This document shows, piece after piece, positions 32,419-35,333 of a DNA stretch of 64,000 bases. The translations under genes and the position numbers were made by a program. The DNA lies in the NCBI GenBank assembly GCA_965197585.1, contig OZ240215.1:2528001-2592000 (forward strand), read 5' to 3'. Under the pieces are notes generated by a model. That model did no database searches and was not told the origin of the DNA. It saw only the letters and a program-made list of their open reading frames with translations. Within the stretch, counting starts at the first letter, position 1, and each line of letters opens with the position of its first letter. The DNA is from Dehalococcoidia bacterium. Its GTDB lineage: Bacteria > Chloroflexota > Dehalococcoidia > Plut-88900.

Positions 32419-33030
32419 CTAAGACCCCACCCCCACGCTGATATCTGTAGGCGTACCGCTATTCGTCGCATTCTGGTCCTGCGGACACGCCGACACACAC
32501 ACCCAGCAGTCCATCTCTACCCTGAGCAGCACGTAGTCCCCCGCCTTAGTCTCCGGCGCCGCGATGTCCATCCTGCCGTCTATAAACACGCGGAAGTTGG
32601 TGAACAGGTTAACGGGCTGCGGTATCTCCACTCCTGGCACCCCGATGGCCTCCATACTCTTCTGAAGGTTCTCCTCACAGCTGGCATGCCACCCCTCCAC
32701 CCCCAACTCCCGGTACCTGCTGGGATTGCACGACGCGTATAGCAAGTCGTGAATTCCGGGGCTATGGTCCTCGACAAGCGTGAGGATAGGTCGGCGCTCC
32801 TGGGTATAGAACGCATCACCTTCCTTCGGAAACAGCCTGGAAATGGAAGGCCTCGTATGCTCGGCGCTCAGGTACTCCTTTACGTTCTCCACGTTGAAGG
32901 CAAACAGGTCCACGGCCTGCCCGCCATGCAGATCTATCACCTTAACCAGCTCCCCCTTACTTACCCGAAACGCCTTCCCTTCCCGAGCCGGTACATGGTA
33001 GTCCAACCGCTTCTGCGTTAGCTCCGTCAT
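32419..33030 (-). CDS. DUF1989 / urea carboxylase-associated family protein, second copy
   Basis: DLHGGQAVD, HDLLYASC, HASC, SACPQD; GGAGG RBS before ATG 33030. Confidence 0.85.
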   Translation of the reverse strand: MTELTQKRLDYHVPAREGKAFRVSKGELVKVIDLHGGQAVDLFAFNVENVKEYLSAEHTRPSISRLFPKEGDAFYTQERRPILTLVEDHSPGIHDLLYASCNPSRYRELGVEGWHASCEENLQKSMEAIGVPGVEIPQPVNLFTNFRVFIDGRMDIAAPETKAGDYVLLRVEMDCWVCVSACPQDQNATNSGTPTDISVGVGS

Positions 33031-33046
33031 ATGCAAACCTCCGTTT

Positions 33047-33142
33047 TTGACACAATTGTCCAACGCGCTTTATATTTCCCTTACCACCCCAGCGGTAGCA
33101 CCTCTGGGCCGACGTCCCCCCATGTGGGGGGCGTTTCTTTTT
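33047..33142 (+). ncRNA. Putative small RNA gene, copy A (promoter, two hairpins, U-tract)
   Basis: TTGACA-18 nt-TATATT, then CCCAG..TAGCAC..CTGGG hairpin and a GC hairpin followed by TTTCTTTTT; homologous to copy B exactly 850 nt downstream. Confidence 0.6.
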
Positions 33143-33225
33143 ACCCTTCCAAGACCTCACACTGATACCGGACCCGAATGCTTGTTGCTCAGTGCGGCAG
33201 GCGGTTACTGGTTTCTCCAAACTCT

Positions 33226-33849
33226 TTAGGCCCACTCCATCGGCCTCTCTAACACATATCCGTCGGCCTTGATGACCTTGCTAGGTAGCTGGTTGCCCCT
33301 TAGCACATTTCGGCCTATTGGCAAGTGTGCGGTTGCAGCCTTTCGGAGATTAGCCGAATGTCGGCCTGGCGGGAAAGCAACGACGACGCGTTTCTCGGGA
33401 TAGCGTGCCCGAACTTTACGCACCAGACCAGACATATCACCATCTGCGGATACGATAAGAGCCGTGTCAAACCTATTTGTTTGAGCATCGTCGAGCAGTT
33501 CGACAGCAATATTGACATCAGTCATTTTCTCTTCATAGGTTTGCCGATTCACTCCACAACTCGTGCAGTACTGGTCTTTGACCATGTAATACCCATAGTG
33601 GATTTGTAGGTCCGGAAGAGTCGCCAAGGCCTCCCAATAGGTAGTCTGTCGCTTCGGTTTACTCGGGTTGCCCGGCTCGGCAAAAACTCTTGCGGTGAAG
33701 TATCGTACTATCACTAGATGTTGTCCGGGCTTCATGAGGTTCTCGGACATTCGCCTGAGATCAAGCCAGTAATACCGCTTCCATCTCTTGGCTCTGAGAC
33801 CATAGTACAGGTTGAATCCATCTACATAGACAGCTACCCTTTCTGCCAA
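33226..33849 (-). CDS. NYN domain (LabA/DUF88, PIN-like) predicted ribonuclease
   Basis: VYVDGFNLY, RYFTA, EKMTDVNIA, VSADGD acidic catalytic set; likely TTG start 33849 after AAGGT; lower GC than flanks. Confidence 0.88.
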   Translation of the reverse strand: MAERVAVYVDGFNLYYGLRAKRWKRYYWLDLRRMSENLMKPGQHLVIVRYFTARVFAEPGNPSKPKRQTTYWEALATLPDLQIHYGYYMVKDQYCTSCGVNRQTYEEKMTDVNIAVELLDDAQTNRFDTALIVSADGDMSGLVRKVRARYPEKRVVVAFPPGRHSANLRKAATAHLPIGRNVLRGNQLPSKVIKADGYVLERPMEWA

Positions 33850-33896
33850 AATTCTACCTTTAACATGATGTAAAGTTGCTTGTTCCACCCGTGCTC

Positions 33897-33992
33897 TTGA
33901 CACAATTATCACATGTGCAGTACATTTGCCTTACCACCCCAGCACTAGCACTGCTGGGCCGACGTCCCCAAATATGGGGACGTCTCTTTTTT
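33897..33992 (+). ncRNA. Putative small RNA gene, copy B (promoter, two hairpins, U-tract), divergent from the NYN gene
   Basis: TTGACA-18 nt-TACATT, CCCAGCA-CTAGCAC-TGCTGGG, perfect GACGTCCCCA-AATA-TGGGGACGTC stem then TCTTTTTT. Confidence 0.62.
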
Positions 33993-34718
33993 GCCCCCAA
34001 GCTCTCCCATCGGCATCTACTCTATCACTACGGTCTAGTCTATCCGAATCCCCGTTCTCACCCCTCACCCCCTCACCCATCCCGATAACCTCACCAACAC
34101 TTTTCAGACATCCTTTCCTACCTACCTAGCATCCCACTCTTAACTGTGTCATCCCGAGGCCCCGCGAGGGATCTAGGACTTGCCCAACCACCCCCCGTAC
34201 GACCACTCCCTCGTGGTTAACCTCCCCACTCCCCACGCATCAAAGAAACACCAAATGTGACACCATCCCCTTGACTCCATCAGACCATACGTACTAACTT
34301 ACTCTCGATTCCCGTCTGCACAGCCGACTCCCCACCGCCGTCATCATTACCTCTTCTTTTCGAACGGTTTTCCCTCCGACCCAACAACCCCATACATCTA
34401 ATCCTGAAGGACCTTGCCCAATTCATAAGCTCCAGCCGCCATTTCGCCCCCCTCTCCCCTGGGAATTTCTCCATTTACGACAAATGAATCAAAGTCTCTC
34501 CGACAAGCAGACAATCAGAATTCGTGCCTGCTGCCCGCAAACAATCAAACACAAAGCTGATTCCTTTGATTGCCCCCGCAAGCTTTGATAGTAGTATGTC
34601 AACTTGCCCCTCACCCCCCATCCGCGTAAACTACCTCCGGATCGCTTATATAACATTACTTGATACGTGCAATAACAGATTGCATGAGTCCACGGCTCGG
34701 CCTGGACCCCTCAGGAGA

Positions 34719-34952
34719 ATGGACACAGGAGAAGACATCGCCATAGCCGACCATTGGGACGCCGGTCACATGGGCTGCGGTGAGGTAATCATCATGCTCA
34801 GGATGCGGTTTCAACCCCTCGCTCCTGGCCAGGTCTTCAAACTCACCACCCAGGACCTGGGCGCCCACGAAGACATCCCCGCCTGGTGCCGGCTCACGAG
34901 TCGGCGCCTCCTCAAAGCCGACCACCCCCACTACTGGATCGAGCAGAAATAG
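34719..34952 (+). CDS. TusA/SirA family sulfur carrier
   Basis: AGGAG RBS; DAGHMGCG, DIPAWCRLT. Confidence 0.8.
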   Translation: MDTGEDIAIADHWDAGHMGCGEVIIMLRMRFQPLAPGQVFKLTTQDLGAHEDIPAWCRLTSRRLLKADHPHYWIEQK

Positions 34953-34970
34953 ACCCTGGAAGGAGTCAAC

Positions 34971-35333
34971 ATGTCCGGAAAGTTCTGCGTCAGCCTCACC
35001 CATGCCAAGGACAACACCGACAAAGCTACCGTGGCCTTCGTCATAGCCAACGCTGCCCTCGGTTCGGAGAAGGAGACCATGGTCTTCCTCAGCACCGAGG
35101 GAGTTCGTGTTGCCGAGAAGGGTTATGCCGACGACATCAACGAGGAAGGGTTCATGCCTCTCAAGGATCTGATGGACAGCTTCGCCGCATTCGGTGGTGA
35201 TATCTACGTCTGTGCACCGTGTTTCAAGAAGCGTGGCCTCGACGAGAACAACCTCGTTGACGGGGCCACGATAGTCGGTGGCGCAAAGCTCGTAGAGTTC
35301 CTCTCCGACAACAGCCCTGCCGTCTCCTACTGA
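34971..35333 (+). CDS. DsrE/DsrF-like protein
   Basis: VFLSTEGV, YVCAPC, VGGAKLVEF; AAGGAG RBS. Confidence 0.85.
   Translation: MSGKFCVSLTHAKDNTDKATVAFVIANAALGSEKETMVFLSTEGVRVAEKGYADDINEEGFMPLKDLMDSFAAFGGDIYVCAPCFKKRGLDENNLVDGATIVGGAKLVEFLSDNSPAVSY

Follow-up and report, generated by a model that had tools for sequence, protein, structure and literature searches.

The window analysed here, a 64,000-nt stretch from the genome of a Dehalococcoidia bacterium, contains a gene for a NYN-domain protein (NYN1) that is bracketed by two homologous units, A and B, each consisting of a promoter and a predicted small RNA. The features are given below. R1 is a covariance model that we derived from the two window copies together with the corresponding units of related genomes, R2 is the improved model, and G003 is a second species with which the window's own genome (G000) was compared.

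33047..33076, + strand: promoter of RNA copy A (TTGACA-18-TATATT, 11/12 consensus matches)
33083..33142, + strand: RNA copy A, ~60 nt (R1 87.6 bits, R2 49.6 bits; 98.3% identity to the G003 counterpart)
33226..33849, − strand: NYN gene NYN1, encoding 207 aa if translation begins at the likely TTG (PF01936, PADLOC HEC-09)
33897..33926, + strand: promoter of RNA copy B (TTGACA-18-TACATT, 10/12 consensus matches)
33933..33992, + strand: RNA copy B, ~60 nt (R1 92.3 bits, R2 57.9 bits; 94.8% identity to the G003 counterpart)

The units occupy positions 33047-33142 and 33897-33992 of the + strand, and their starts lie 850 nt apart, as the initial annotation of this DNA had claimed; the 131-nt regions around them align with 82% identity. 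The order of elements is the same in both, namely promoter, short 5′ tail, hairpin, CGA linker and terminator. In copy A, the 5′ tail ACCA is followed by hairpin 1 (CCCAG...CUGGG), the linker CCGA, a GC-rich terminator hairpin and a U-run; copy B shares this architecture and is transcribed divergently from the NYN start. The two promoters, already proposed in that annotation, were the only sigma-70-like sites recovered by a promoter scan of 32900-34400, where shuffled sequences average 0.9 sites. Intrinsic-terminator-like hairpins are found at 33111-33135 (A) and 33961-33984 (B), with a T-run after each, and the substitutions between A and B preserve pairing (e.g. G-C to A-U in hairpin 1), both in line with that annotation. 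The predicted RNAs (~60–64 nt) each fold as two hairpins, at −29.4 kcal/mol (z −3.0) for A and −30.9 kcal/mol (z −6.6) for B, with z-scores relative to shuffled sequences. The exact motif occurs only twice in the whole 3.43-Mb genome.

We placed the 5′ ends of the RNAs from the −10 box, assuming that transcription starts 7 nt after it. An identical 5′ segment had been reported for the two copies, and CTTACCACCCCAG is indeed common to the regions around A and B, but given such a start site the free 5′ tail of the RNA is probably only about 4 nt. So short a tail would favour protein binding over antisense seed pairing. The RNAs had also been described as antisense to NYN. They do lie on the opposite strand, but they do not overlap the coding sequence (CDS). 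RNA A lies beyond the NYN stop codon, with 83 nt between its end and the codon, and RNA B starts ~84 nt before the probable TTG start at 33849, which was set by alignment of homologues (the longest NYN open reading frame, or ORF, extends to a GTG at 33912, within the B promoter). With the start at TTG 33849, the RNAs therefore flank the CDS by ~83–84 nt per side, with zero overlap.

The ORF between the units encodes a NYN-domain protein (PF01936, E = 4.2e-17, 63.4 bits versus a cut-off of 24.2) and has a full-length match to the PADLOC profile HEC-09 (280.7 bits, E = 1.5e-84, profile positions 2–202 of 203). A PADLOC scan of the protein returned HEC-09 and NYN profiles only, and no ToxN/CptN/TenpN-type toxin. 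Two other NYN proteins encoded in this genome, NYN3 and NYN4, match HEC-09 with E values of 1.9e-34 and 7.3e-37, respectively. The AlphaFold model of NYN1 has a pLDDT of 92.3, and its best Foldseek matches are 2qip (LabA-like, E = 2.5e-10) and the NYN domain of MARF1 (5yaa and 6fdl, E = 1e-5 to 2e-4); a search of PDB sequences gave a weak match to 2qip only. Across an alignment of 15 homologues, D10, E107, D136 and D138 never vary, and conservation of D111 is 90% or higher, consistent with the earlier statement that the protein retains its acidic residues. NYN1 would thus resemble the LabA-like and MARF1 NYN domains in modelled fold and in aligned acidic residues, domains for which we know of no dedicated small RNA partner. 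Its residues and predicted fold give NYN1 the appearance of a catalytically active nuclease, and it belongs to a candidate defence family.

Structure and conservation of the RNA

We aligned 66 members of the RNA family from Dehalococcoidia and plasmids (64 distinct) and, separately, 27 members from viral contigs (23 distinct). In these alignments, both of which were fitted to the covariance model by a procedure that favours the structure, 96.9% and 96.0% of cells are in standard pairs, compared to 36–57% when the partners are slid by 1–3 columns. Compensatory changes are present at 16/17 pairs, and for neither alignment did any of 500 shuffles reach the observed pairing values. Even so, the slid-partner controls and the number of different pair types make a strong case for both hairpins. 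The single-stranded features that are conserved are a C run at the foot of hairpin 1, the linker, which in most members contains CGA, and the U-run. The loop type follows the protein clade: loops resembling GAUAGCAU accompany the NYN1 clade (Thermus and two viral contigs, L184 and L185, among them), and UUCG-like loops accompany the NYN3/4 clade.

Comparison of the two species G000 and G003 shows where the locus is constrained. Identity reaches 98.3% (A) and 94.8% (B) in the RNA bodies, compared to 78.5% for the NYN CDS, 79–83% for the spacers and 80–87% for the promoter regions. Because the RNA bodies are so much better conserved than their surroundings, it follows that both copies are maintained as RNAs.

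No family in Rfam 15 matches the units at E ≤ 10 (window) or E ≤ 1 (20 further loci, covering five phyla and viral contigs), and this comparison took in the models for DUF3800-I to -XI, drum, skipping-rope and abiF. We also considered a riboswitch and rejected the idea, as no known class matches and the opposite-strand layout speaks against it.

Association of the RNA with NYN genes

The window's own genome contains six matches to PF01936, and we scanned all six NYN loci with the speed filters off. R1 and R2 found the RNA at four of them. Besides the window, there is a third, diverged copy at G000:C1:610269-610338 (R1), 236 nt from the second NYN gene and divergently transcribed. At the 492.6-kb locus, the unit lies on the same strand as, and directly upstream of, the gene for the 209-aa protein NYN3; it has its own promoter, TTGACA-17-TATGTT, and the NYN TTG start is 12 nt past the U-run. 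The same-strand upstream layout recurs at the 2.92-Mb locus, where the R1 match is weak (E = 0.21) and the R2 match clear (31.4 bits, E = 9.4e-6). A whole-genome scan with R2 gave NYN-adjacent copies only, in a run that scored 150 of 1887 candidates, so more copies are possible.

Two observations on these loci may be recorded here. An IS481-type transposase-like ORF, recognised by eye (L029 173-1063; ~491.7–492.6 kb of G000), stops 14 nt short of the promoter that drives the NYN3 leader. At the 2.92-Mb locus (L031 2037-2106; ~2.9236 Mb of G000), there is no ATG, GTG or TTG for NYN4 between the leader terminator and the conserved N-terminus; the open frame reaches back to a GTG within hairpin 1, so that NYN4 may use ATC or ATT as its start codon or may be translated from inside the leader.

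Searching the flanks of NYN homologues with the covariance model, as the initial annotation had suggested, we found that the RNA recurs beside NYN. NYN3 has 234 relatives in species-representative genomes, and we kept the best 80, nearly all from Dehalococcoidia metagenome-assembled genomes. Among these best 80 of 234, the RNA is directly upstream on the same strand in 80/80, with the NYN start codon ~12–25 nt past the U-run, and 13/80 loci carry extra RNA copies, tandem or downstream, with full units 84–240 nt apart. Some genomes contribute 2–3 of the 80 copies. Between paralogous cassettes, homology starts at the RNA promoter and stops at the NYN stop codon. Promoter, RNA and NYN therefore form a compact cassette of ~710–765 bp found in differing contexts.

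The window NYN protein matches 79/401 genomes of the class, and we scanned 28 of the resulting loci. An adjacent RNA was found in 22 at E < 0.01 and in another 4 at E 0.01–1; the remaining 2, one of them at a contig edge, had none. The NYN1 clade, defined by at least 47% identity to NYN1 plus one frameshifted copy, comprises 16 of these loci, and in 13 the RNA is on the opposite strand. It is divergent, just upstream of the start, in 10 and convergent, just downstream, in 4, with one locus having both, like the window. The divergent position, that of copy B, is thus the commonest in this clade. In the NYN3/4-like clade, which accounts for the other 12 loci, a same-strand upstream RNA is seen at E < 0.01 in 9 and with weaker scores in a further 3.

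The association also recurs beyond Chloroflexota. Relatives of the window NYN protein are found on 113 plasmid records, the closest being that of Thermus oshimai pTHEOS01 (52.9% identity), whose gene directly follows a helicase-related gene. Its unit (20.6 bits, E = 1.5e-4) is divergent and has its own TTGACA-17-TTTAAT promoter; the RNA combines the window-type hairpin-1 loop with a CCCGAC linker and ends in a terminator. On a Paenarthrobacter plasmid, the unit is convergent and comes just past the NYN stop codon (33.3 bits); on a Leptospira plasmid, it is a same-strand leader (18.6 bits). Viral contigs supplied 47 full-length loci (28–44% identity in the segment that matches best), and a unit adjoins NYN in 26 of them: 20 same-strand upstream, 3 divergent and 3 convergent.

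Small enterobacterial plasmids gave a different result. Downstream R2 matches on four of them (L172 1107-1156, L175, L177 and L179) were discarded, as they involve only the terminator-hairpin part of the model; Rfam assigns RNAI to L172 1107-1156, and by likeness we read the other three as the same ColE1 RNAI false positive. An upstream match on an E. coli plasmid (L172 337-402, 16 bits) was weak and was not counted, and R2 found no convincing unit at four loci on small E. coli and Klebsiella plasmids (L175, L176, L177 and L179). At these four, NYN is divergent from a helix-turn-helix gene across a 300–370-nt gap. A different RNA or protein partner may be used in these plasmid lineages.

Collectively, these data reveal a structured, conserved RNA family associated with NYN genes in three geometries: same-strand upstream, divergent upstream and convergent downstream. 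The initial annotation had proposed an undescribed small RNA specifically partnered with NYN, and this is substantiated, in that the RNA tracks NYN in many genomes, several phyla and viral contigs and has no match in Rfam. The module as then pictured stands in part: the partnership of RNA and NYN holds, but the opposite-strand, two-copy layout proves to be a minority architecture, and about a third of the sampled RNA copies lack a NYN gene within 1.5 kb. The alternative offered at the time, a cis-regulatory leader tied to the DUF1989 gene next to copy A, is rejected. DUF1989 adjoins only 4/142 RNA/NYN loci, 3 of the 4 being syntenic and from the same genus; copy A is on the strand opposite to the DUF1989 gene, and the RNA does not travel with DUF1989.

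A cis-acting role on NYN itself deserves more weight. In this scenario, the RNA would be an attenuator or autoregulatory leader that throttles a dangerous nuclease gene, perhaps bound or cut by NYN as feedback, and the opposite-strand and orphan copies would be relics or decoys. The layout of the 80 NYN3-type loci speaks for it, with the unit placed between the only visible promoter and the start codon and the terminator 12–25 nt ahead of the start, as does the same layout in 9 of the 12 NYN3/4-like loci (E < 0.01) and the same-strand upstream position in 20 of the 26 unit-bearing viral-contig loci. However, in 13 of the 16 NYN1-clade loci and in Thermus the RNA is on the opposite strand with its own promoter, and it cannot attenuate NYN there. 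With a promoter and terminator of its own on that strand, the RNA of these NYN1-clade loci is therefore no leader of the nuclease mRNA, which speaks for a role in trans. Nor are the window copies decaying relics, as they are 95–98% conserved versus 79–83% for their flanks, and the CCCC stem base and CGA linker are conserved far beyond the needs of termination. Inspection revealed no conserved antiterminator pairing, although no formal test was made. On balance, we consider a purely cis-acting leader unlikely.

The opposite-strand layout raises the question of antisense control, as in type I systems, in which the RNAs would base-pair with the untranslated regions at both ends of the NYN mRNA. 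No sigma-70-like NYN promoter is seen between B and the start codon in the window, and at one other locus (L115) the −35 box of the unit is only ~17 nt from the NYN start, so that NYN transcripts may begin inside or beyond the unit. In most loci, however, the RNA is on the NYN strand, where antisense pairing is impossible. Antisense action strikes us as very improbable.

Further features lie beyond copy B. The 700-nt C-rich non-coding stretch between it and a TusA-like gene holds two short repeats (window 34147-34196 and 34508-34604), one of ~45 nt with more than 30 further matches in the genome and one of ~100 nt with about 9. TusA-like and then DsrE-like genes follow at 34719-35333 (+), the TusA match being under the Pfam threshold. 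A weak match to the Rfam family CRISPR-DR8 at 34808-34844, inside the TusA-like ORF, is probably due to chance.

An RNA that may restrain a nuclease

The window contains a real, conserved RNA–nuclease module, and the association of the RNA with NYN is well supported; we infer its mode of action, from transcription through binding, inhibition and toxicity to the trigger. In our preferred reading, the RNA would be a dedicated trans-acting partner of HEC-09-type NYN ribonucleases that restrains the nuclease in the manner of a type III toxin–antitoxin system, an interpretation in which we place roughly even confidence. In type III toxin–antitoxin logic, RNA acts on protein and is made in excess. 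Here, the ~60-nt RNA would bind the NYN nuclease and hold it inactive, as RNA antitoxins do, and RNA output would exceed protein output. In the leader form, the RNA's own terminator would let only read-through transcripts get to the nuclease gene; in the window form, two strong stand-alone promoter–terminator units would serve the same purpose of excess RNA. Were transcription to stop or the RNA to be degraded, upon phage attack or cassette loss, the RNA pool would fall, and the nuclease, once freed, would cut RNA.

Any explanation has to account for the fact that the same RNA is kept in every layout, be it a leader or a gene of its own before or after NYN, and that the leader form places a terminator ahead of the nuclease start codon and behind the sole promoter that can be seen. 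It must also accommodate a cassette that behaves like a selfish element, with sharp homology edges, 2–3 copies per genome, and occurrence on small plasmids and viral contigs. Given the retention of the RNA in all layouts, the leader terminator, and a selfish-like cassette whose protein belongs to a candidate defence family, the best fit is a separate RNA that acts on the protein and is made in excess.

Several points weigh against a restraining RNA. When we searched in the reverse direction, from the RNA, R2 matched 31/151 genomes of the class, and 19 of 30 RNA-centred loci have a NYN match within 1.5 kb (3 of these are short pieces, and one is Pfam-confirmed); the other 11, one at a contig edge, have none. 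Single orphan units without NYN are seen in the genomes G001 and G011. At another orphan locus (L156), two tandem units (1355-1568) lie directly upstream of a DUF3800 gene (ORF 1607-2407; PF12686, E = 1.2e-15), and at L181 (G143:C1:413000-419000), three same-strand units ~135 nt apart (2523-2861) lie immediately upstream of a RelA/SpoT homologue. A single RNA unit is the rule in the family, unlike the tandem repeats of type III antitoxins, and the NYN/PIN-like fold differs from that of ToxN. HEC-09 gave no protection against the phages tested, according to its description (bioRxiv 10.1101/2024.01.29.577857). Finally, were the leader architecture considered alone, a purely cis role, by attenuation or autoregulation, would explain the data equally well.

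Some details of the orphan loci are worth adding. At L181, there is no NYN match within 6 kb, the RelA/SpoT-like ORF, recognised by eye, has 778 aa, and a fourth RNA unit lies 0.9 kb ahead of the array. The G011 unit (L017 2092-5796) has on one side a gene for a large methyltransferase (PADLOC mad2 / MTase II / PglX-like). On its other side is a convergent VapBC-like pair, which by eye has the look of a PIN-type VapC with a ribbon-helix-helix antitoxin. Pfam and PADLOC searches of the neighbours of orphan units gave mostly no matches. A pattern match in G015 was dismissed as chance, since the covariance model gave no support at that place.

The orphans lend some substance to the idea of an independent trans-acting small RNA family that merely travels with NYN cassettes, or of hairpins that serve as recombination sites bounding a mobile cassette, with G001 as the empty site. 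In addition to orphan copies and arrays away from NYN, this idea can draw on the sharp cassette edges and on the state of G001, where a single hybrid unit without NYN occupies the same site; its DNA resembles A ahead of the −35 box and B once the spacer begins. That state fits either deletion or insertion through recombination between repeats. The apparent crossover lies in the −35 region rather than in a hairpin, however, as ordinary homologous recombination between repeats would give, and there is no recombinase gene consistently nearby (one IS481-like ORF at one locus). The units also carry strand-specific promoters and U-runs, and hitch-hiking does not predict an NYN association that persists across phyla and three geometries. 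We judge either version of this idea to be decidedly improbable.

A closer competitor keeps the partnership and reverses its sign, making the RNA an obligatory cofactor. An NYN ribonucleoprotein would then contain it as a structural or targeting component and need it for activity. The tight and ancient pairing of RNA and NYN suits this as it suits a restraining RNA, and the tracking of protein clade by RNA loop type, as well as the reported lack of defence by HEC-09 alone in E. coli (bioRxiv 10.1101/2024.01.29.577857), would be consistent with it. On the other hand, the ~4-nt single-stranded 5′ tail is nearly invariant, which leaves no variable guide segment; a terminator layout that gives RNA excess suits an inhibitor better; and orphan RNA copies make more sense as antidotes. 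An obligatory cofactor therefore seems to us improbable, if somewhat less so than a hitch-hiking RNA or a cassette boundary.

How does a restraining RNA compare with systems already described? Known type III antitoxins consist of repeats arranged in tandem, which the toxin itself processes. The window module resembles ToxIN, CptIN and TenpIN in combining a structured RNA gene, a Rho-independent terminator and a ribonuclease gene in mobile, multi-copy cassettes (as seen in 80/80 NYN3-type loci). It differs from them in the fold of the putative toxin, NYN/PIN-like here and, as far as we are aware, ToxN-type there, and in that its RNA is usually one two-hairpin unit instead of an array of short repeats. 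It differs also in layout: the window RNAs are on the opposite strand with their own promoters, and a same-strand upstream RNA, as in type III systems, is found instead in the sister clade (80/80 loci). A literature search returned no description of NYN as a type III toxin–antitoxin system, nor of such an RNA partner of NYN.

There is precedent for a type III-like antitoxin of another kind. The abiF RNA motif (RCd22 in Clostridioides difficile) is described as neutralising the Abi_2 toxin in cis and in trans (bioRxiv 10.1101/2025.04.15.648962). Like the RNA discussed here, abiF was a motif from comparative genomics located beside a toxic RNase-like protein, and it is reported to be a type III-like antitoxin. 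The differences are that Abi_2 is HEPN-like and not NYN, that the two RNAs are unrelated, and that the present RNA is known from sequence alone.

The closest phenomenon described is that of the DUF3800-I, drum and skipping-rope RNAs, reported as terminator-ended RNAs of unknown function that keep to a single protein family irrespective of orientation (Weinberg et al. 2017, PMC5737381). For the DUF3800 family, eleven other RNA motifs are already described (PMC5737381). The terminator end and the orientation-independent tie to a protein are shared with our RNA, and the two tandem copies at L156 sit directly upstream of a DUF3800 gene. Our units, however, match none of the Rfam models for these motifs, and their partner is NYN.

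Payne et al. described HEC-09 as an NYN-domain gene embedded in Hma defence systems and as a single protein (bioRxiv 10.1101/2024.01.29.577857). The full-length profile match of the window NYN and the position of its Thermus oshimai homologue, directly after a helicase-related gene, are both reminiscent of that family. HEC-09 was cloned with its putative native promoter region, which may or may not have included an RNA unit (bioRxiv 10.1101/2024.01.29.577857); the main text of that paper contains 0 mentions of non-coding RNA (bioRxiv 10.1101/2024.01.29.577857). Extending the idea of a restraining RNA, we can tentatively envisage, with somewhat less confidence than in restraint as such, phylum-spanning, type III-like abortive-infection modules built on an NYN nuclease, in which a single 60-nt two-hairpin RNA would be both inhibitor and sensor, HEC-09 would find its true two-part form, and the orphan RNAs would act as anti-addiction antidotes.

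The RNA constitutes a new family, with strong covariation support and absent from Rfam 15. After DUF3800-I, drum and skipping-rope, it is a second case in which an RNA with a terminator end stays with a single protein family whatever its orientation, a pattern unexplained since 2017. Carriers that can be cultured exist, in the form of the Thermus oshimai plasmid and small E. coli plasmids. If the RNA does restrain its nuclease, NYN/PIN-like would be a fourth, unrelated toxin fold among RNA-antitoxin systems, and HEC-09, at present a single-gene candidate without shown defence, would become a two-component system, whose function may have been missed by constructs or assays that ignore the RNA.

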